Source of the DNA: a plasmid
DNA length: 64,000 bases
Sequence record: NZ_CP118109.1
Strand: one strand, 5' to 3'
The translations under genes were made by a program, and so were the position numbers. The first letter of the stretch is position 1. The number at the start of each line of letters is the position of its first letter. This document shows positions 6,534 through 55,300 of the stretch, one piece after another. Below the pieces are notes generated by a model. It did not search any database and was not told where the DNA came from. It was given only the letters and a program-made list of their open reading frames with translations.

Positions 6534-7397
6534 TTAATCCACCTTTGAGAAAGTTATATTTTTCTCAGCTACTTCGCGCACAAGATCTCCATTTGTGTCG
6601 CCGGTGATTACGTCGGGGATAGGTCTGCCTTCTTTTATAGCAGCTCTGATATTTTCGACATCCTTATAAGCTTCGCTGCCGAAGTTAAACGGATTAGGAT
6701 TACGGATACTACCATCATTCTTGGCACTATCTGAGTGGCAGTAGATATTAAAAGGGCAATCTTTGCACTTATAATTGCTCGGCGTATATCCTTTTTCAAG
6801 CGGAGGGAGCATTCTGTCTTTGGCCAGCTGTATACATTCGTTTGCTTTTTGCTCTAGCTTCTTGCCGTATACAGGGTCGTAATTCATGTGGTATTCCCAA
6901 ACGTCTTGTGTATCCTTCTCTTCAACGAAAATGATTCCTTTGTGGATGCCAGATAAATGCATGTAAAACGTAAGCTGCGCTTTATGTTCAGCCTTTGGTT
7001 TATTGTTTTCTTTCATCCACTTAAAGCTATGACTGAATGCGCTCTTTAGTTCCACCAAGAACTTTTCCCCAAAGGGATTTAGAAAGCTTGGAATACTGAT
7101 AAGCGCATCCGTATGTCCGCTGATATCGTCCCGCTCTAACTTCATTTCTGCCTGAACGAGGACTCCCATATCAGCGAACAATTTCTCGTAACGGTGATGC
7201 ATGCTATGACCATTTTCGAAGATTCGGATGAGCTGCGGATCAGTTTCTGGCTTCGGAACCATAAGCATATCGAATACGATTTTCCGCTTACACATGCCGA
7301 TCGTAGAAGGATGAAGCTTTCTCATCGGCCTTGTTTCATTGGCTAGTTTCTTTTTTTGATGTCGTTCGATATAGGTTTGAAGCAATCCCGCCATCAT
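6534..7397 (-). CDS. Cas4/RecB-like PD-(D/E)XK nuclease with Cys cluster
   Basis: N-terminal Cys (STIGMCKRK). D...E-L-K core (GHTDALI...LVELKS). C-terminal C-x2-C-x5-C (YKCKDCPFNIYC). 287 aa. Strong GGAGGGGG RBS. Confidence 0.6.
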   Translation of the reverse strand: MMAGLLQTYIERHQKKKLANETRPMRKLHPSTIGMCKRKIVFDMLMVPKPETDPQLIRIFENGHSMHHRYEKLFADMGVLVQAEMKLERDDISGHTDALISIPSFLNPFGEKFLVELKSAFSHSFKWMKENNKPKAEHKAQLTFYMHLSGIHKGIIFVEEKDTQDVWEYHMNYDPVYGKKLEQKANECIQLAKDRMLPPLEKGYTPSNYKCKDCPFNIYCHSDSAKNDGSIRNPNPFNFGSEAYKDVENIRAAIKEGRPIPDVITGDTNGDLVREVAEKNITFSKVD

Positions 7398-7412
7398 CCG
7401 ACCCCCTCCATG

Positions 7413-7463
7413 AAATGTAATGCGTTACATTTCAATTATAAACGAGATAATAGAAGGAATCAA
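7413..7463 (-). promoter_or_regulatory. sigma-A-type promoter TTGATT-N17-TATAAT with dyad AAATGTAACGCATTACATTT at +1
   Basis: On the minus strand, TTGATT (+7458-7463), 17-nt spacer, TATAAT (+7435-7440), palindrome 7413-7432, then GGAGGGGG RBS and ATG at 7397. Lies downstream of terminator 7465-7495. Confidence 0.7.
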
Positions 7464-7464
7464 G

Positions 7465-7495
7465 AGAAAAACGGAGATAAACTTAATTATCTCCG
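7465..7495 (-). terminator. rho-independent terminator (minus strand)
   Basis: 8-bp stem CGGAGATA/TATCTCCG with 8-nt loop, followed on the minus strand by UUUUUU (A-run 7466-7471 on +). Confidence 0.6.
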
Positions 7496-7731
7496 CTTAC
7501 TGCCTCTTCATCTTCGGTTGTGAGATCTGAATACATTTCTCGGTTGCATAAGACAATTTGATTAAAGAACTTACTGGGTACAATTAGATTTCCTGCAACA
7601 ACATAGTTATCTCGTTCAGTGATTTCTTTCAGTCTTAGTTCCAATGGAAAATGATTTAAGTTGTTCGAACAATCCAAGGTGGCAACTCCAGCAATCATAG
7701 TGTTCTCGTTAAAGTTCATCATCGTAGACAT
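7483..7731 (-). CDS. hypothetical protein
   Basis: 82-aa ORF; stop lies inside the terminator hairpin 7472-7495. Confidence 0.45.
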   Translation of the reverse strand: MSTMMNFNENTMIAGVATLDCSNNLNHFPLELRLKEITERDNYVVAGNLIVPSKFFNQIVLCNREMYSDLTTEDEEAVSGDN

Positions 7732-18776: not shown

Positions 18777-18880
18777 ATCGTGCAATAGTTATTGTATTCT
18801 ATATTTCTCTTCATTTAAAGTCTTGACATTCGAAAAACCCCAACATGTAGTGCTGAGGTCTTCCGAAATATACAAGGTTT

Positions 18881-19258
18881 CTACTTTTTCACAAGCTGTT
18901 CAAGGTATTCTCCTTCAGCATCACAAACTTCTCTGATTTGTTCCATTGCTACGGTTGATCCAATCGACCGCAGCTTCTTAAACACAAATAGATCACGTTC
19001 CTCTTCATTATAGACAGGATCGCCTTCTCCATCCTCGGGAGCATTTCTGACAAGTCCTTCAGTCAACTGAATCATTTCAATCTTAAGTACTTTTCCATCC
19101 ACGGAATGGTTGAATACCTCCAAGGCGCGAGTCAGGTACCCACCATAAAAATGATTGCTGAAAGTTTCTTCAGTAAGGGCGCCGATCTCATCGTACATTT
19201 CATCCATGTTCTTGATTTTCTTTAGATTACCCAAGTATTCTTCTAACACTGATTTCAT
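18881..19258 (-). CDS. hypothetical acidic protein
   Basis: 125-aa ORF. Confidence 0.5.
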   Translation of the reverse strand: MKSVLEEYLGNLKKIKNMDEMYDEIGALTEETFSNHFYGGYLTRALEVFNHSVDGKVLKIEMIQLTEGLVRNAPEDGEGDPVYNEEERDLFVFKKLRSIGSTVAMEQIREVCDAEGEYLEQLVKK

Positions 19259-25464: not shown

Positions 25465-26568
25465 TTAGTTTTGATAAATCTTAGAGGCGAATCGGCGCTG
25501 AGCTTCATCTTCCGCTTGGATAAACAGAGAGTAATCGGGAATAAAATTAAAGAACTTAGTACTCTTCATGGATGCGTGCTTATTCTTAGCGAACTTCACT
25601 TCCACGACAGGCATCTTCAAGTCTTCATCTTCATCGACCCAATAGATTTCAGCATTCTCTTCCTTGATGCCGACTTCGTTGTACATAAGGCAGACCATTG
25701 TTGCTTCATAACGAAGAGTGATTGTATCCTTCAGATCATCCTCTATCGGACGCTTGCCGTTCGTTTTACGCAAGTGAGCTGTACACATAACGACAACATC
25801 AAATCTTGTAGCCCAGCCTTTGATCGTTTTAGATACGTGAGCCGTCTTATCATCATTGTTGCTGAAGGTCTTGCTCTCTACTGTCAAGTCATTGAAGGAG
25901 TCAATTGCAATTACGATTCGAGTGCCTTCAGGCATCGTCATCTTAATATCCTTGATGTGCTCTTCAATGGCTTCAACGCTGGTCATATCATTGGAATCGA
26001 ACATGCCGAAGCGGTCTACTCTGCGATACAGGTTCTTGATTCCTTCATTACGCTTATTGATAATCTCTTCATCGTCTTCATACTTAGCTGGCGACTTTGC
26101 TTGGCCGATCGTGATTTGTTGATCGTTGGCAATATAGCGCGGCATAAGATCGTTATTGGCATCATCAAGCGAATGATACGAAACATAGACCTTTTCATTT
26201 CTCTCTGATATTCCTTTACATACTTGAAGCATGTAGGCGGATTTACCGACGTTTGGTGCAGCGGCAAATAAGATAAGCCCAGGCTGAGCCCCGCCTTCAA
26301 AGGCGTCATCGAATGATTGCAACCCTGAAATTAATCCCCCGTTTTTCCCTCTGGCCCATGAGTGAGCATCCATATTCATGATATTGCGGAGCATCTTTTC
26401 TTCGATTCTGTTTAACGGACGACCAAGTATTCCCTCGACATTTGTAACAATAACCTTTTTTCTCATTTCGGGCTCAAAGCCGAATGCATTTGGATCTTGC
26501 TGCATTTGTCTTTCAACTTGATGCATGATGTCCGTAAAACTAAATTGTCCTGGCTGTGTATTGCTCAT
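25465..26568 (-). CDS. replicative DNA helicase, DnaB-like RecA-fold ATPase
   Basis: Walker A AAPNVGKS. SLDDA (DnaB SLEM-like). Walker B IVIAIDSFNDL. The ORF-track start at 26727 is rejected because GGAAGGAG RBS lies 6 nt upstream of the ATG at 26568 (MSNTQPG...). Confidence 0.75.
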   Translation of the reverse strand: MSNTQPGQFSFTDIMHQVERQMQQDPNAFGFEPEMRKKVIVTNVEGILGRPLNRIEEKMLRNIMNMDAHSWARGKNGGLISGLQSFDDAFEGGAQPGLILFAAAPNVGKSAYMLQVCKGISERNEKVYVSYHSLDDANNDLMPRYIANDQQITIGQAKSPAKYEDDEEIINKRNEGIKNLYRRVDRFGMFDSNDMTSVEAIEEHIKDIKMTMPEGTRIVIAIDSFNDLTVESKTFSNNDDKTAHVSKTIKGWATRFDVVVMCTAHLRKTNGKRPIEDDLKDTITLRYEATMVCLMYNEVGIKEENAEIYWVDEDEDLKMPVVEVKFAKNKHASMKSTKFFNFIPDYSLFIQAEDEAQRRFASKIYQN

Positions 26569-26585
26569 AGCTGCTCCTTCCATAC

Positions 26586-26742
26586 GGCTTATCTCTCTCC
26601 CGTGTAATACCTGCGAGTGTTCGTAAGCATTACACAGGGAGAGATCCCTGTGTGTTGTGTGTTGGGTGAAGTTGAGGTTCGAGCAGGGTCCTAAGCTGCC
26701 CCTTACAAGGTGCGTATAAAAACACAACCCTCTAAGGGACGC
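26586..26742 (-). other. GC-rich, highly structured non-coding element between primase and helicase genes (candidate RNase III processing site, ncRNA or replication-origin-like element)
   Basis: About 52% GC versus about 40% for flanking sequence. On the minus strand an about 17-bp imperfect stem (AUCUCUCCCUGUGUAAU...AUUACACGGGAGAGAGAU) ends 10 nt before the helicase RBS. A second enclosed helix pairs GGCCUAAGC with GCUUAGGACC. CA-repeat ACACACAACACACA. The ORF-track frame through it lacks an RBS, whereas the helicase has a strong one at 26569-26580. Confidence 0.45.
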
Positions 26743-27840
26743 TTAGGCCTTTTTCTCTTCCTCTGCTTTTTTATTCAACTCTTTATTAAAGAGAGGACAT
26801 TTATCTTTATCGCATACGCCGCTCAGTCTAGCAAAAGCTTCACAGCCGTATCGGTATTGTCCGTTATAAACTGAGTTCACAATAGTTTCGATATCTCTTC
26901 TGTTCAATCGAGGCATGCAGTTCTCTTCGCCCCATATGAGCATCCGCGCCATTGCTTCATCTCGTTCCATTCCTTGCTGCATATAGAAGCTGGTAAGTGC
27001 AGTCCCAGAGTTATTACGCTCGTCCACAGTTTCTTTAAATGTACGCTCAAGCATGGTCTGAATGCATGGCGGCAGAGTTTCTAGCTTGCGAATCTTCCCT
27101 TGGTATTCCTTTGCTTTTATATTCCGTTCGGTCCATTTTTGGATGTACCGATCAAGGGATAACTTAGCTCTATTTGATGTTACCAGTGGAGCAGGTTGAA
27201 GGAATCTCGGTTCTTTTGCCAGTTCCTTAATTTGTTCTAGTGTACAAGTGCGAAGCTCCTGCTGCGTTATGGGTATCTTATAATGACCACCCTTCTTATT
27301 GAAGGAGTTGACCATTCGAAACATGCGCTTATCATCGTATATTGCTGTATCCATTGTTCCAAACAGTGTGTACTTCGCGATATCAAGTGCAATCTCACGG
27401 TAGATTTGATTCAGGGATACGTGCGGATTTAGCCCAAGCACATGTCCGCTGACAGTCAAGTGAATCCCTTTGTGTCCCGAATAAAATACATTGATCTGAT
27501 CAGGCTCGATTGAAAGAATATGCTTAAGATAACGAAAGGCAATATGCACGTCATACTTTAATTTGGTGTAATCCTCTTCTGTCTCTAATGGCTTATCAAA
27601 GTCCAGATAAAGATCGCCCCATTTCAGAGCATCCCTTGCATTCAATACCCATTTCCCTTTTTCATTTTGAAAGAACTCAGGGTTAATGTATTGCATTACA
27701 GTCTCATAGACGCCTATGTTGTTGTAGTAATTCCGAAACTTGATGGTCTCGGAAGGATGCATATAATGCTTTCGTGTAAATGGAAACTTTTCCGAATTGG
27801 TGTCCGCTCCGCATTCCACAAAAAGCTGGAACTCATTCAC
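26743..27840 (-). CDS. DNA primase, archaeo-eukaryotic primase (AEP/Prim-Pol) superfamily with C-terminal Cys4 zinc element
   Basis: Motif I YLDFD, motif II SGHKGIHLTV, motif III RMVNSFNKK. C-terminal C...C...C..C (YGCEAFARLSGVCDKDKCPLF). 365 aa. Confidence 0.7.
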   Translation of the reverse strand: MNEFQLFVECGADTNSEKFPFTRKHYMHPSETIKFRNYYNNIGVYETVMQYINPEFFQNEKGKWVLNARDALKWGDLYLDFDKPLETEEDYTKLKYDVHIAFRYLKHILSIEPDQINVFYSGHKGIHLTVSGHVLGLNPHVSLNQIYREIALDIAKYTLFGTMDTAIYDDKRMFRMVNSFNKKGGHYKIPITQQELRTCTLEQIKELAKEPRFLQPAPLVTSNRAKLSLDRYIQKWTERNIKAKEYQGKIRKLETLPPCIQTMLERTFKETVDERNNSGTALTSFYMQQGMERDEAMARMLIWGEENCMPRLNRRDIETIVNSVYNGQYRYGCEAFARLSGVCDKDKCPLFNKELNKKAEEEKKA

Positions 27841-28523
27841 TGTGCGATCACCTGTTTTCGAATCACTCGGTTAATCCCATGTATCTGATGAATATTCTTC
27901 TTTTGTGATATCGTCTCTCTAGCTTCATCTACATATTTCTCAATATCAAAAGCGTTTCGAAGAAGGCTCCGTTGCCAGCTTAAGCGAATGCGCTTTGCTT
28001 CATCGATGGCAAACAGGATTTCGTCCAGATCATAGATGCCGAGTAAGTAATTAAATTTTCCTTCATCCTGCTTAATCATATGAGGATTGCTCTGAATGTT
28101 CATCTTTTCATACCAGTACTCAAGCAGTTCTTCCATCGTAAAGCGTTTCTTCATCTCCAAGAAGAACGGCTCCACTTCTTGAATATATTTGCCGTCCGGT
28201 CCTTTACGCATCTTAGGCGCAGGAGAAGTTTCCCTCAGCCGGTTGTGATAGTAGAAGATATCCGGATTCATGATATTCTTCGGTGGTTTCTTTGTGGCGA
28301 AAATCTCTTCAAGCATATAAATTCGTTTGACCATATCCGGGTAATCTTGGGCAAACTTCTCGATCTCTGCTTGAATCTCTTCCAGCTCCCATCCATCCTT
28401 AACTAATTTCTGAATAGATGATATGTTAGTCCGGATACGAGAGTCGGCATTCTGTATCGGAATACCGACTATCGTGCATACGAACCATCCTGAGAGCTGA
28501 TAAATCAACCCATCTCGATTCAT
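27837..28523 (-). CDS. hypothetical protein in replication module
   Basis: 228 aa, sits between primase and SSAP; no motif recognised. Confidence 0.45.
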   Translation of the reverse strand: MNRDGLIYQLSGWFVCTIVGIPIQNADSRIRTNISSIQKLVKDGWELEEIQAEIEKFAQDYPDMVKRIYMLEEIFATKKPPKNIMNPDIFYYHNRLRETSPAPKMRKGPDGKYIQEVEPFFLEMKKRFTMEELLEYWYEKMNIQSNPHMIKQDEGKFNYLLGIYDLDEILFAIDEAKRIRLSWQRSLLRNAFDIEKYVDEARETISQKKNIHQIHGINRVIRKQVIAQ

Positions 28524-29789: not shown

Positions 29790-29840
29790 AAATGTAATGC
29801 GTTACATTTGTATGATAGCACGCTGAATTTTAGGAATCAA
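29790..29840 (-). promoter_or_regulatory. sigma-A-type promoter TTGATT-N17-TATCAT with dyad AAATGTAACGCATTACATTT at +1 (near-duplicate of the 7413-7463 promoter)
   Basis: On the minus strand, TTTTTCTCTTGATTCCT block (shared 17-mer with 7452-7468), 17-nt spacer, TATCAT (+29812-29817), palindrome 29790-29809. Lies downstream of terminator 29852-29883 and upstream of the SSAP gene. Confidence 0.7.
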
Positions 29841-29851
29841 GAGAAAAATTG

Positions 29852-29883
29852 AAAAAACGCAAGATATCGAGAGATATCTTGCG
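29852..29883 (-). terminator. rho-independent terminator (minus strand) downstream of 29903..30181
   Basis: 11-bp stem CGCAAGATATC/GATATCTTGCG, GAGA loop, preceded on + by AAAAAA (U-run on the minus strand). Confidence 0.7.
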
Positions 29884-29902
29884 CTAGAAAGAGATAGAAG
29901 TA

Positions 29903-50100: not shown

Positions 50101-52322
50101 TCAGCTTCATAAGCGCTGTTAAATTTATTAGGGTCTGGATTCTTGTAATAGAGTACCGCTGACACCCCTCGCTCACCAACGAGTACACGACCTACACCGT
50201 TTCCGTTGGCTCCCGGCTCACGCATGAGCTGGTCTTTTTCCCAAAGGAAGCAGTAATATTCTTTATCGTTGTTAACTCGGAACTGAATCCCAATGACATC
50301 ATCATCGTTGTGATCGTTAACCGTAACGCATGCAGAGAAGATGTAGTTGTCTTTATCTTTGTGAGCACCATTATAATATCCGCTGACTTCAATCTTATTT
50401 ACAGTTAAAAGAAGCACGTCCCTAGCTCGGTTGTATTCCCATTTGCCACGAGTCTCATTGGAGCCAATAAAGTCCCATCCTGTAAATACATCAATAGGCT
50501 TTGCTGCAAACGCCTTCTCAATCGTTACGTTTTGACATACTTTCCATCGTCCTTCGTAGCTCTGTGAAGTAATGATCTCACCTGATCCACTGGCTTCCCA
50601 CGTGAAGTCTACTTCTGACTTCTGCTGCTCAGGATAGATCGTAACCTGATGTTCGATCGGATTGTTCTTCAGTTTGACGTTGCTTCCGCTGACTCCCGTC
50701 CACTTAGCGGTTGTCGTATTTGATTTTGCCTGTGCCGGTGAACTGCCGCTTTCTGCTACAATGCTTTCTACTAGTCCATTATCCGAAGCGGCTTGAGTTG
50801 TATAGAGCAGGTTCCCGCTGGCATCTTCAATCCTGAATACGGCATCCATCGGAAGTGAAGGCATGTCTACTGGCATAATCGATTGAATGAGGCTCCGTGC
50901 GTCTACATATCCGCCGCCAATATTTACGCCCAAGGTTTTATACTCTCCGGTAAACTCAAGCTTCTCATGGGCGAGGAGTGCATCTGCATTCATTGTCCAA
51001 TCGCTTACGTATCCAAAGGTTAATGTGCGTTGGTTGTTCTTGTCATCCAAATAGGTAGCAGATAATTTATAGTTGAATGCGTTACGCGCTCTTGGGTCAT
51101 TCATGGAACGTTGCGGTACCGTAATTTTATATCCATCCTTATCTGGATATTCCTCAATCGAATACACCTCTTGAATGTCCTCGGCTGCCCGCAGGTCTTC
51201 TGCTGTCACCTGCTCGTATGCACCGATCCCATTGATTACTCGGAGCTTGCCGCCCTCAATCAATCCAATATTCCCTTGATTAGAATAAAGCTCCACCGTT
51301 TTTGTGGTGCTCTTAAGTTCTGCATCTGGAGCAGGAGTTTCTACATGATTGTAGCGAACCTTAAAGGTCTGCTCTTCATCCGTATTGCTTTGAATATAAA
51401 TCTTCACCCAATAGATCTTAGGATTCTGCTCAGTCGTTTGAGCATAGATAAGACGCTTGAACTCAGGTCCTAGCAGGTTCCCATTTTCATCGGTTAGCTG
51501 AATTTGGCTGCCTGTGTAACGTATTACCTTCCCTGCTTCTCCTGGATCACTATCGTAATGATACTTCAGCTCAAACTTATAAAACAGCGCACTGGATATT
51601 GTAGTTTCGTTCTGCGTAAATCGTCTAGTGATGTTGATATTCTTGGATGGAAACCTGCTGTATGGCGGACGCATAATGATCGGCTGATCATCGGAAACCA
51701 CATCAGCATAGGAGAGGACGCCGTTTGCATCCGGAACAACTAAGGACTCAATCTGATCAATAGGGATTACATTTTCATTGACCGAAGAGGTGTCGATCAA
51801 TGAAACGTTCTCTTCTACGTTGATCCGCGGACTATGGATATAAGCCAGATTGACATCGCCAGCTGGTACCTGTTCACCCACTCTGAGTGAAAGCTTGCCG
51901 TTAGGCAGCGCCTTATTGAACTCAAATAATTCAAGCCCATAATCTAATCGCTGATCTTTATGATAATAAGCTACTGCTTTCATGGCTCCGTCAGCTGTTT
52001 GAACTTTCTGCTCTACTCCATCTTTATAGAAAACGACTGAAATATCTTTGTGACCTGATTTAGTCTGATAGCCGACAACCACGACTTTGTCGGATTGAAT
52101 CCCATATTCCTGAATGTAATCATCAATCTGCTTCTGGAATGTTTCCTGCATACTCATTCCATCGCAAAGCGTCTGTCCGATTTCAGCTTGATTCATGGTT
52201 TCGTTAATCGTGAAGTAATCATCATATACAAATACCTTATCAAGCTCGGTCTGATCCTTTACTGAGATAATACATGCGATGCGATAAAAGTCTTTAATCA
52301 CTTTTAATCTCCCTTCTTTCAC
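47151..52322 (-). CDS. giant tail fibre/structural protein (1723 aa)
   Basis: Long beta-rich ORF. The palindrome motif overlaps its stop codon. Confidence 0.6.
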   Translation of the reverse strand: MKEGRLKVIKDFYRIACIISVKDQTELDKVFVYDDYFTINETMNQAEIGQTLCDGMSMQETFQKQIDDYIQEYGIQSDKVVVVGYQTKSGHKDISVVFYKDGVEQKVQTADGAMKAVAYYHKDQRLDYGLELFEFNKALPNGKLSLRVGEQVPAGDVNLAYIHSPRINVEENVSLIDTSSVNENVIPIDQIESLVVPDANGVLSYADVVSDDQPIIMRPPYSRFPSKNINITRRFTQNETTISSALFYKFELKYHYDSDPGEAGKVIRYTGSQIQLTDENGNLLGPEFKRLIYAQTTEQNPKIYWVKIYIQSNTDEEQTFKVRYNHVETPAPDAELKSTTKTVELYSNQGNIGLIEGGKLRVINGIGAYEQVTAEDLRAAEDIQEVYSIEEYPDKDGYKITVPQRSMNDPRARNAFNYKLSATYLDDKNNQRTLTFGYVSDWTMNADALLAHEKLEFTGEYKTLGVNIGGGYVDARSLIQSIMPVDMPSLPMDAVFRIEDASGNLLYTTQAASDNGLVESIVAESGSSPAQAKSNTTTAKWTGVSGSNVKLKNNPIEHQVTIYPEQQKSEVDFTWEASGSGEIITSQSYEGRWKVCQNVTIEKAFAAKPIDVFTGWDFIGSNETRGKWEYNRARDVLLLTVNKIEVSGYYNGAHKDKDNYIFSACVTVNDHNDDDVIGIQFRVNNDKEYYCFLWEKDQLMREPGANGNGVGRVLVGERGVSAVLYYKNPDPNKFNSAYEAETNMTKYMSDYGFKNRKKGIFKASPTTLPPYSDALHPNCQYKSDRTETSFENITSNVNYNAKGWVPGETYKIRVVVAGSKFQVYIGNDTSDDALGTLVCEAEDSTYSKGSYGICNISQENALWSKLKFTELDVHELCTDWENVTLTSNDWVKVSDKKPADILTPLIEQYMKDTYGDGMPYTVTTPSVVGDPVDLRAEVRNDGYIWAVTNSSQAGGTLSTPWLTSDNRKNITGTGKAVMRADGVMNVTLTPPMLTKDNIPIEIQNFSWNRIWATSGEGVSIRINGDNSVSAEVDVPPIIAIGAPLTLPLEGTDKIYKQEGMKSMGLLFGTGNILEKLNIPSSVPANELLLRIERGDAAGNNRENRVNYRWHYNWQNREYFEVDQANRGVNRMRMKNILQPGTKNVIEGLTADLVAWTTFEELESVPVLAIKIDDDKKIEMEKPKVERDNTEIDNWYVRVKNGRVKKRYVLPYYEAGEKVPQLYVYYPELIPYAPMNPEERKEIIMDYTVPEYTNQEFYNEPVILIDREHPVILNDKAIQVGFTPIAMASEAGVSYLEVEAIRMNQSRKLRVSDIDAKKGIIYLHDRIRDQDEVIVRYAYVEDWYTYRGYNRSGEFFHLDLNPSPGHRFTMAQDGFHEWVPGDVTLRESYTTTEKQSNELLVRQMHVYLRPTSIWIQEESGPQLISGTTRNQAIFHTDDGYWFEPDDYNYDPSMLRLGKVTVQANSSLKKDVVIMDTRTRGGGLDEALSKAVIAKVNKESLYHWDIGYFDGEAYQENGVIIVRLPRSILATPNNPNGFSEAEVQAAVAKHKGYGILPIIEYYDPQPTDLNVLGNPEFLYGKHLNEYNANLSSGLYFINQQDLGTGDNSILQIAEGGVYGILLSTANLEYSDYTLDIKAKKMSKAEDRSAAVIRYAYRNGETAEVPMATINSEDWMIYTADIMNDGNVDSIIIQVNSKEAKGGILVDYVKMFPKFTEIDGVEFIEL

Positions 52323-52345
52323 CTATGTAAAAAGCAATAGGGGTT

Positions 52346-55300
52346 TTATGCCCCTATTACCTTCAGGTAGATGAAGTTGCTTGCTGTTTCACCTTCCATA
52401 CTGTAAGAAGCTGTTACAGTAATATTGCCTTGCTGTTCATTCAAAGCGGATATTGTCCACTCTGCTTGGCCATACACATTTGTCGTCATTTCAGAAGTAG
52501 TGATATCACCTTTCGTATCACGACAAACAATCTTAATTCTCTCCCCCGCCACGTTCTCCCAGTTCTCATTTCGAAGCGTAATGTAGACGGTTGCCTTATC
52601 ATCCTGCCCCGCTTGAATCGCAGCCTTACTGGTTTTCACTTCAAGGAAGTAGCGATCCTTCATATTAGGAACATAGAAGTTTAGGAGTGTTTGGTTATTT
52701 AAGTCTTCGCAGATAATCTGATATGCGCTAATCATTTCAGCTCTAGGTACTGGCTTATCATAAACGTAAATTTCACCTGCACGGTTTGTTGGACCGCTGT
52801 AGATCAATTCTCCATCACGATATACATCCACGTTCTTGTTCTGAATAGGATTGTTGTATTTGTCCAGTACCTTCCCTGTCACAAGGACCTTTCCTAATCC
52901 ATCGGAAGATAATGTCTTTGGTGATACATTGATCTCTACAGATTTTGGTGTGTCCAATATCTTGTTGGTCAAGTAAAGGAAGCCCTTGTGATTATGAGTA
53001 AGCAGCGGATTCAGTGCGATTTCTTTTGCACGATAGAACGGACTAAACGCATCGCCTTCATAAATTATCTCCATATCCTTCATCTTGTCTGGATCATAGT
53101 TCGAATGAAGAACAATCTTAGCGACATCATTATTCGGATCGTGGTTATAGTCTACAAAATAGCTGTACATTAAGCTATATTCGAAGTTCATTATATCACG
53201 GTTTCCTATATTGTTCATGAACTGAATCGACGATCTCTCTGCATCAAATACATATTTGTCTGCTGAAATTGTAACGCCATTCAATTTAACAACAAGGCTG
53301 TCCGGGTCAATGCCTTTATAGGTGAGATAGTACTTACCATATCCGTTTCCAGTCAGCTCTTCTTTATAGGTTAATGTCTGCTGAATATCAATGAGCAAGC
53401 CATCCTCGTTAAAGACTTCTTCATAGAATGCCGTTTTGCGAAGGATATTCCCTTCATTATCCCTTATGATCATCGGAGCTCCCTGTTGTGGCCGAGGTTG
53501 AATGAGAAGCTGGTGATCAACCGGAGTCATTACATGGCGGGTCTTCTTCGCATATAGGTAGTGCTCTTTATCTTTGAAGTAGTAATAGCCATTATGAATC
53601 ATTGGACTCCATGGCATCGGAGTGGCTTCTTTTACTCTGGCATTTACCGCATAGCCTAATCGAGGTGTAAAGAAATCAGGCGAGATCATAGTTCGATCTG
53701 TTGCCGGGTGTGACCATTCCAGCTTCACACTGGCCGTGCCTTCATTTTCGAAATAGTTAGCGTTGAAGTCGTACCATTTGCCTCCTTGCAGATCAATGCT
53801 GCCCACATGAGTCATTGCAGATTGCAATACCCATTTATCAATGATGAGCTTCTTATCAATCCAGAGTCTGAATCCATCGTCTGAGGTGGAGTAGAAAGTA
53901 TAGGTACCCGATACCGGCGCATAGATGCTTCCTTTCCAGTTGATTGCAAATCCATCGTTTGGTGTCCCCTCATCGGTCGGCTGAATCGGATCAATGTAAG
54001 GCTCTGGCTGATCCGGACTGTAAACGTCCACTGATGTATCCGGTGGTAAGTGCCCTCGGTTTATTTCACGGTAATCAAGCCAAGCAGGTTGCTCAGGCGT
54101 GGATGCCGGACGCGTAATAACGGTAGCCGATACCTTAGCATCATCACTAGATGTAACGATACCTCCTGTTGTAAAGTGCGTCTTGTAATCACTCGTATCG
54201 TTCTTGATAAAGTATTGAAGCGACACATCACTGCGTGAGAATCCATGAGCACTTAGGAAGCTATTTAATTCGCTACTGAAGAACTCAATCATTCGCTGGT
54301 CGTTAACCACCATCTCTTCGGTTCGCAGACTGTCGGTCAGCGATTTTGTCTTCTCTGCACTCATCGGTTTCCGGATCGTTTCTTTTAGAATTTTCGAGGT
54401 GCTGAAATTCCAGAAATACGTATTAGGCTGTGATCTTGTTACTGGCCCCCATGCCCCTGCAATTAATGCATCCGGTGCGTTGTCCACAATATCAAATTTT
54501 AATACGTCATTGGTATAGACTTGGATCGACTGTCCGACGACTCTCACACGGATCTTGTTCGTTTGATTTCCTCCATAAGCCCAGGGTTCGGGAAGGTGAG
54601 CAAGCTTCACTTTGTTATAAGTGAGCTGTGCTGTTCCGTACTGAGATGGGTTTGTACAGATGTTTCGATATATAGCCATCCCTCTTACATCCATGCCATC
54701 TGCATCCCACTCAAACGAATAGAAGTTTTTAGTGGCAGGGCTGAAGCGGAAGATTGCACCATACATATCATTATCACCTGAATTGATCTCTTGCACCAAG
54801 AACTCGAAATCATAATCCGTCATGTCTACATGTTCGGGATTGTACCATCCAGAGCGGTAGCTTTGATTAGCAAGATTCGTTACTTTGTCATAACCAGCTT
54901 CGGGCGGGCCGTGCCAGTTTCCTACATCTGATCCAATGTTTTCATCGAACTTATTCCATACGCCAGTGAAGTTACTGGTGTCGATGACTTCGGATGAAGG
55001 ATAGCTGATCTCCATCTCGACATTCAGATTAAATTTAATCTGATCAGGAATCACGGCCATCATGCGGAAACCGGCAGGTTCCAGGCTTTCCGTGAATGGC
55101 GACTGCGTACCCCAGTTGAAGTTAATGAAAGGATCGATGCGGGACATCTTTACATTACCAAGGTAATTTTCTTTCTGCGGATCGAAGCGCTTGGCCACCC
55201 TGTAGGACTGCAAGTGAACCCAGTCTTTAGGCATGAGTAATTCTTTATCCACCGTAAGAATACGACCGCTGATGCTATATTTCGTTTCATCCAGCTTAGC

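Follow-up and report, generated by a model that had tools for sequence, protein, structure and literature searches.

The 64-kb window, that is, the whole stretch of DNA analysed here, carries all its long open reading frames on the minus strand, and a gap of about 175 bases (26569-26742) separates two of them. The upstream gene (26743..27840) encodes a primase of the archaeo-eukaryotic type with a PriCT_1 C-terminal domain (PF08708, E=4e-7; phrog_16345, E=7e-72), and the downstream gene (25465..26568) encodes a DnaB-like replicative helicase (Pfam DnaB_C, E=5e-23; phrog_243, E=4.5e-39). The translation start region of the helicase (26566..26583, minus strand) contains an in-frame AUG at 26583-26581, the Shine-Dalgarno (SD) sequence GGAAGGAG at 26581-26574 and a second AUG at 26568-26566. 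The helicase most likely starts at the latter, ATG 26568, and the 367-aa protein read from this codon was 100% identical to an NCBI Paenibacillus protein. The distance from the primase stop codon, TAA at 26745-26743, to the helicase SD is about 160 nt.

Relatives of the helicase were found in Paenibacillus, Bacillus, Priestia and Alicyclobacillus, some of them on named plasmids, and the nearest phages by protein were Bacillus jumbo phages, including 0305phi8-36 (33-37% identity). The related plasmid pSCDB14 of B. licheniformis encodes ParM, ParB, RecA, DnaN and the Pol III alpha subunit. Because of the helicase identity, the plasmid-borne relatives, the nearest phages and the gene content of pSCDB14, the window is assigned to a phage-plasmid of about 210 kb: it is part of a 0305phi8-36-like Paenibacillus phage-plasmid. 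In pSCDB14 (L033 and L034, 1-100000), a gene for the flagellin Hag adjoins one for a CsrA-like carbon storage regulator, and a PemK/MazF toxin, an RNase H family protein and a protein with a DnaA N-terminal domain are also encoded.

In consensus scans, a terminator and a promoter that would head the operon were located at 29885-29812 on the minus strand, and no minus-strand promoter or terminator was detected between primase and helicase. The region 29812-29885 comprises a strong terminator-like hairpin of 13 bp and then UUUUUCAAUUU, directly followed by a promoter-like TTGATT-17-TATCAT with an upstream TG; it is probably the start of a recombinase-primase-helicase operon.

Composition and predicted fold of the primase-helicase interval

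The G+C content over 26550-26749 was 0.50-0.52 compared with 0.38-0.45 in the flanks, a local maximum, and a CA-rich run was found at 26668-26649. The coordinates, the G+C content of about 52% and the CA repeat given in the initial annotation were thereby reproduced.

The primase and helicase reading frames share one frame here (25465-27840) with a single TAA between them, which is regarded as a coincidence because homologues hold many stops in that frame: six in L001, an 85%-identical relative, and 3-7 in the other homologues checked. On these counts a split gene or a read-through of the single TAA was rejected. No frame on either strand was open in every homologue. By this comparison the interval is non-coding.

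The minimum free energy (MFE) of the minus strand over 191 nt was -85.9 kcal/mol, compared with -50.4 +/- 4.1 kcal/mol for 200 dinucleotide shuffles (z = -8.6). The corresponding z values in relatives were -7.1 (L001) and -6.6 (B. licheniformis pSCDB14). After G+C correction, the part of the interval holding the first hairpin ranked 1st of about 3200 minus-strand windows of 100 nt in the 64 kb. Other structured 100-nt windows of the minus strand were seen at 7381-7500, 52281-52420, 18781-18920 and 28381-28520, with G+C-corrected z values of -3.4 to -4.5; three of these four lie at gene junctions.

The element has four conserved parts: a hairpin with a G.G mismatch after the stop codon (H1), an alternative hairpin (H1b), a C-rich linker, and a second hairpin with a decoy (H2) before the helicase ribosome-binding site (RBS).

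H1 (26687..26749, minus strand) was identified by the MFE fold and by covariation among homologues as a hairpin of 63 nt with about 26 bp and a central G26732.G26706 mismatch. The primase TAA lies within its 5' strand, and its lower stem is formed by GGCCUAAGCGUCCCUUA and UAAGGGGCAGCUUAGGACC. The helix of GGCCUAAGC with GCUUAGGACC proposed in the initial annotation is present as the base of H1; the several small hairpins that it was said to enclose are replaced by one continuous 63-nt hairpin. The core helix of H1 was 97% paired over 11 homologues, with six of nine pairs changed on both sides. Ten of the 11 homologues have G.G at the central mismatch, whereas L008 has A.G; the stems on either side of it covary (CCUUA-G-AGGGU here, CCUGU-G-UGGAU in L022, CCUUC-G-AAGAUA in L030). 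The upstream stop codon, as read from the sequences, was situated 0-12 nt before the H1 5' strand in 9 of 11 loci and 22-37 nt ahead of H1 in L012 and L032. At the H1 apex of three Paenibacillus relatives (L012 at about 2815-2840, L022 at about 2270-2295, L023 at about 2265-2305), 2-3 direct repeats of (G)ATCACGTA with a spacing of 10-11 nt were observed; the H1 of this window has none.

The H1b-like alternative hairpin of this window, GGGCAG-CUUAGGACC-CUGCUC (26681..26701, minus strand), uses a 5' strand that is also part of the H1 base. In the relatives H1b has 6-8 bp and a loop of (C/A)UUCGCAUA, found in the Bacillus and most Paenibacillus copies; this loop has diverged to CUUAGGACC in this window and in L001. 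The H1b stems covary (GGAGUGGG/CCCACUCC, GAAUGGG/CCCAUUC, GAAUGGA/UCCAUUC, GGGGUGG/CCACCCC, GAACAGG/CCUGUUC), and over 11 homologues the helix was 89% paired, with six of seven pairs changed on both sides. Taken singly, the H1b hairpin of this window was not above shuffles (p = 0.54); it is accepted here only because of the family covariation. For three alignment columns, pairing with the H1 base is as good as pairing with the H1b 3' strand, and the H1 base and H1b therefore overlap.

The linker (26654..26686, minus strand) was delimited by composition and by the predicted fold as an unpaired stretch of 33 nt, rich in C (45%) and poor in G (6%), that contains the CA repeats as well as CCUC/CUUC motifs. 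In eight homologues it measured 26-34 nt with 29-50% C (at least 33% in seven of the eight) and 6-18% G.

The decoy hairpin (26632..26653, minus strand) consists of segment 1, ACACAGGGA at 26653-26645, and segment 2, UCCCUGUGU at 26640-26632. Its energy of -14.8 kcal/mol was not reached by any of 1000 shuffles (-3.2 +/- 1.9 kcal/mol), and the pairing was non-random at 13 of 14 loci. Segment 2 doubles as the basal 5' arm of H2, so that decoy and H2 are mutually exclusive; segment 1 is a copy of the 3' partner that segment 2 has in H2, located just upstream.

H2 (26591..26645, minus strand) was predicted by the MFE fold and in 14 loci; here it is a hairpin of 55 nt and 24 bp with three G-U pairs and an energy of -32.8 kcal/mol. 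It corresponds to the imperfect stem of AUCUCUCCCUGUGUAAU with AUUACACGGGAGAGAGAU that had been noticed near the helicase RBS. H2 ends 9 nt ahead of the SD, and the sequence of its 3' arm, ACACGGGAGAGAGAU, is rich in purines and resembles an SD. A stem of 19-37 bp was retained at 14 of 14 loci despite sequence turnover. Inspection by eye for loop-loop pairing of H1b with the apex of H2 gave partners that were inconsistent across lineages, and no claim is made. No intrinsic terminator was called in 26560-26760 of the minus strand, and neither H1 nor the decoy nor H2 is followed by a U-rich tail.

An extra AUG was observed at or just past the H2 3' arm in this window (26581-26583) and in L008, L012, L030 and L032. 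An extra AUG in the helicase frame was present in this window, L001, L006 and L032, with GUG in its place in L022. The extra AUG of L008 and L012 starts a mini-ORF of eight codons whose end overlaps the helicase start as AUGA, and that of L030, upstream of the helicase, starts a mini-ORF of four codons.

The initial annotation also compared the arms of the long stem with the half-sites of a promoter dyad. This comparison did not hold. The heptamer GTGTAAT was found 7 times in the window against 6.4 expected and is not enriched. The 14-nt dyad TGTAAYGCRTTACA had 14 occurrences in the window against 0.63 expected; none of the 14 sites, counted with at most two mismatches, fell inside 26566-26760, and the H2 arm fits the dyad only with one base deleted. 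No TATAAT was found ahead of H2. In Bacillus relatives the dyad is kept, yet the sequences of their H2 arms are unrelated. The resemblance of the H2 arm to the dyad is thus judged coincidental. The dyad sites themselves (1885, 7416, 9912, 10918, 18760, 29793, 32074, 47142, 62169 and others) are mostly intergenic, and several are placed just downstream of a TATAAT-like box on the transcribed strand, e.g. TATAATTGAAATGTAACGCATTACA at 7440-7416; likewise, the -10 box at 29817-29812 precedes a dyad at 29806-29793. Such placement looks like that of an operator at a transcription start. Exact copies of TGTAAYGCRTTACA were found in the Bacillus plasmid relatives L032, L033 and L034, and also in L003.

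Distribution and covariation among relatives

The primase-helicase junctions of 25 distinct genomes were compared, and relatives of the element turned up in phage-plasmids of Paenibacillus and Bacillus that belong to the 0305phi8-36 lineage. The whole element was present in 11 of them (this window, L001, L006, L007, L008, L012, L022, L023, L030, L031 and L032); L022 is a plasmid of P. rhizovicinus, and L030, L032 and L031 are Bacillus plasmids of B. licheniformis, B. halotolerans and B. thuringiensis, respectively, where L030 stands for itself and three near-identical records. The helicase-proximal module occurred by itself in three genomes, after small ORFs in L011 and L016 and after a different ORF of 198 aa in L013. 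The remaining 11 genomes had no element: the genes overlapped or were 2-18 nt apart in L002, L003, L004, L009, L010, L014, L027 and 0305phi8-36, and a small ORF was located in the gap in L025, L026 and phage Edson. This pattern of presence and absence shows that the junction varies between genomes. Among the relatives compared the element is accessory and patchy and, where present, in every case immediately upstream of the helicase gene.

The junction was also seen to be a hotspot for inserted small ORFs of 52-118 aa in relatives (L011 2646-2882, L025 2155-2511, L026 1021-1266, L016 about 2030-2390, L031 3446-3882, L029 2264-2422), and the product of the L011 ORF is Cys-rich and zinc-finger-like.

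DNA similarity against 50,697 phage records, with this window or the B. licheniformis copy as the query, gave no match. An exact 18-mer scan of IMG/VR returned one already known contig and no other, and helicase-profile scans of genomes and metagenomes gained few loci. The Rfam scan suggested in the initial annotation yielded no family match: nothing reached the gathering threshold when 4227 models were run on the window region and eight related loci. The best scores, 13-35 bits, were obtained with models for microRNAs, snoRNAs and intronic RNAs of eukaryotes or viruses, whose thresholds are 40-93 bits.

Folding with covariation across relatives, the other check suggested there, came out in favour of the structure. 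In the alignment of eight sequences, 85.8% of the cells of the whole element pair, and 27 of 42 pairs were changed on both sides compared with 14.1 +/- 2.4 in shuffled alignments (0 of 500 reached 27) and with 7-12 in slid controls. In the same alignment, 14 of the 20 pairs of H2 were changed on both sides. For H1 together with H1b, 12 of 16 pairs were changed on both sides over 11 sequences and 94% of the cells were paired. The element-bearing set is small, with 11 full and three partial copies, and its sequences are related to one another. Of the 96 columns of H1 and H1b just 6 were invariant and 7 near-invariant, and the stems covary freely.

G-U cells outnumbered A-C cells by 26 to 2 in H1 and by 19 to 7 in H2, and the fold is therefore a property of the sense RNA. 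Of eight homologues, five had a lower MFE for the sense than for the antisense strand, one had about the same value for both, and in two the sense MFE was slightly the higher. A covariance model of H1 and H1b gave sense-strand scores of 49-80 bits, with 59 bits in this window, and antisense scores of 12-30 bits, and it gave exactly one match per element-bearing locus; no second copy was found with it in the 64-kb window, in 25 other loci or in 100 kb of pSCDB14. The G-U asymmetry and the covariance-model results together indicate a single-copy structure of the sense strand which is almost certainly RNA. The earlier proposal of a non-coding, structured and conserved element on the transcribed strand is thus corroborated by the covariation, the G-U asymmetry and the absence of a frame open throughout the homologues.

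Candidate functions of the helicase leader

Judged by these alignments, a sense-strand, cis-located RNA structure under selection that forms a helicase leader may be taken as firm, and the element most likely sets the amount of helicase relative to primase. The explanation favoured here, with somewhat less than even confidence, is that the interval is a cis-acting helicase leader which uncouples helicase from primase expression, plausibly via RNase III. The leader would be read from the minus strand within an operon whose promoter lies near 29840. In genomes that have the element, direct translational coupling would give way to separately tuned helicase expression. The most likely route would be post-transcriptional: the two duplexes of 19-37 bp may serve as substrates of the host double-strand-specific RNase III, and the cuts would split the transcript into a primase message that ends with a protective hairpin and a helicase message that starts at the purine-rich stretch beside the SD. 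The decoy would form first in transcription and delay or modulate H2, so that it would govern the frequency of the long duplex.

That the duplexes have kept a uniform length while their sequences turned over completely suggests that they are read as double-stranded RNA, and the host RNase III is the obvious and plausible candidate for the reader. The stems of H1 (about 26 bp) and H2 (24 bp here) reach the approximately two helical turns by which RNase III sites are judged. The targets of B. subtilis RNase III are duplexes of 10-36 bp cut to leave 2-nt overhangs (PMC11780869), a range to be compared with the 19-37 bp of the H2 stems in 14 loci. Stem length is a permissive criterion for RNase III and not a discriminating one. 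In addition, simple processing by RNase III would require neither a conserved loop of 9 nt nor a conserved G.G mismatch nor a decoy strand. Since these features go beyond what RNase III needs, the readings in which a protein binds the element as its operator or a ribosome signal is relayed through it stay alive; the conservation of the mismatch and of the H1b loop suggests a protein as an additional reader of the RNA. The riboregulator of helicase translation, listed as an alternative in the initial annotation, accounts for the data no less well than RNase III processing does.

The helicase SD was predicted to be about half accessible regardless of the state of H1. Pairing of the linker, with its anti-SD-like CCUCC, to the helicase SD was considered and rejected, being not above composition (p = 0.03-0.70). 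With the SD half accessible and this pairing at the composition level, no simple occlusion mechanism is visible. Forcing the decoy at full length cost 9 kcal/mol, and the decoy was the MFE structure only before the H2 3' arm is made. Because of this cost the decoy matters only kinetically, as a co-transcriptional intermediate, or with a bound factor.

A bound factor is central to the reading that the element is an operator for an RNA-binding protein, autogenous or phage-encoded, which would bind the G.G mismatch and/or the UUCGCAUA loop, shift the balance between decoy and H2 and so set helicase translation. The G.G is kept in 10 of 11 homologues though both flanking helices covary, the (C/A)UUCGCAUA loop is kept from Bacillus to Paenibacillus over covarying stems, and the mutually exclusive pairings are conserved. 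However, this window and L001 have lost the conserved loop, the neighbourhoods compared revealed no candidate protein that accompanies the element, and the helicase SD is predicted to be non-occluded in either state; we consider such an operator rather unlikely.

A similarly low probability is given to the broader proposal that an uncatalogued RNA family of Bacillus and Paenibacillus jumbo phage-plasmids forms a two-stage relay, H1 base/H1b and then decoy/H2, turning a signal into the primase-to-helicase ratio. Such a relay would read either ribosomes leaving the upstream gene or a phage protein at the G.G or the UUCGCAUA loop. Of the features of riboswitches, mutually exclusive helices were found (decoy/H2 at 13 of 14 loci; H1 base/H1b), and a core of the kind that binds a ligand was not seen in H1 and H1b, where few columns are invariant.

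In ribosome-sensing coupling, a ribosome ending at the primase stop would melt the H1 5' strand, H1b would form and the change would be relayed to the helicase start across 175 nt; helicase translation would then stay dependent on primase translation, an outcome we hold to be improbable. The position of the stop 0-12 nt before the H1 5' strand in 9 of 11 loci agrees with this mechanism, as do the competition of the H1 base and H1b for three columns with both pairings kept, and the overlapping genes of relatives without the element. When the H1 5' strand was blocked in folding to mimic a terminating ribosome, H1b formed in L001, L008 and L023. However, the same constraint did not raise the predicted accessibility of the helicase RBS, which was 0.38-0.62 compared with 0.40-0.67 in the free RNA with no consistent direction, and H2 stayed folded, so that a ribosome-triggered opening of the RBS was rejected. 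H1 is, moreover, entirely missing from the loci that have H2 only, and the stop is 22-37 nt upstream in L012 and L032.

The composition of the linker (45% C and 6% G here; 29-50% C and 6-18% G in eight homologues), which is untranslated and predicted to be unpaired, would suit a Rho-dependent attenuator, where Rho loads once the ribosomes leave at the primase stop and transcription into the helicase is lowered. The linker is just 26-34 nt long, however, below typical Rho-loading regions, the H2-only loci are without it and the covarying hairpins would be left unexplained; we therefore find attenuation by Rho very improbable. The two stable terminal hairpins around an unpaired C-rich stretch with CCUCC-like motifs would also suit a trans-acting small RNA, cut from the operon transcript and pairing through the linker with the purine-rich RBSs of other mRNAs. 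Against it, consensus scans gave the element neither a promoter nor a terminator of its own, and its position relative to the helicase gene is always the same; the small RNA is just as doubtful as the attenuator.

A DNA-level element, either a replication origin, as in the origin-like alternative of the initial annotation, or primosome-loading hairpins beside replication genes, is very unlikely indeed. Its location between primase and helicase and the 2-3 direct repeats of ATCACGTA at the H1 apex of L012, L022 and L023 would favour it. But about 11 related genomes, many of them close and 0305phi8-36 itself among them, lack the element, the interval is locally the most G+C-rich with no AT-rich unwinding region, and the structure relies on the G-U pairs of one strand. 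The apex repeats are restricted to three relatives and no repeats were found in the window, and in pSCDB14 a gene with a DnaA domain, together with a large intergenic region, is found at another place. A coding or recoded linker, joining primase and helicase in their shared frame by read-through of the one TAA, is refuted with near certainty by the 3-7 stops of the homologues.

Relation to known regulatory RNAs and meaning for the phage-plasmids

The R sites of T7 are RNase III processing hairpins between the cistrons of phage early mRNAs, and the RNase III sites of Bacillus phage SP82 have a purine-rich 5' stabiliser downstream. The element shares with both the long imperfect hairpins of at least 20 bp between genes of one phage operon, which is a predicted one here, and with SP82 the purine-rich, SD-like stretch after the second hairpin. 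It differs from them in its two predicted hairpins and a predicted small third; its G.G mismatch, conserved loop and decoy strand are none of them a known requirement of RNase III sites. In the lambda cIII mRNA and in the leader of the MS2 maturation gene, a kinetic folding trap, as is predicted here, one strand has two exclusive pairings just upstream of the start, one of which is favoured only transiently during synthesis, and in lambda cIII the balance between alternative mRNA structures is shifted by RNase III. In contrast to these two systems, the start codon and the SD are outside both alternative helices here and are predicted to be non-occluded. Chains of competing helices after an upstream reading frame are also common to ermC-type attenuators and riboswitch platforms, whereas the element has no leader peptide, terminator, SD sequestration or invariant ligand-pocket block. 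The element is a new RNA motif, comparatively well supported and of a familiar general kind.

Hardly any structured RNAs have been charted in the large phages and phage-plasmids that Gram-positive bacteria carry. The element is located at the junction of two core primosome genes, and the relatives with and without it constitute a natural comparison set. If the two-stage relay is true, it would be a protein- or ribosome-responsive switch and not a passive nuclease site. If the element controls the ratio of primase to helicase, it would reveal how a replication module can break free of simple translational coupling; beyond this, it enlarges the set of phage cis-regulatory RNAs by one family, with no new principle established.
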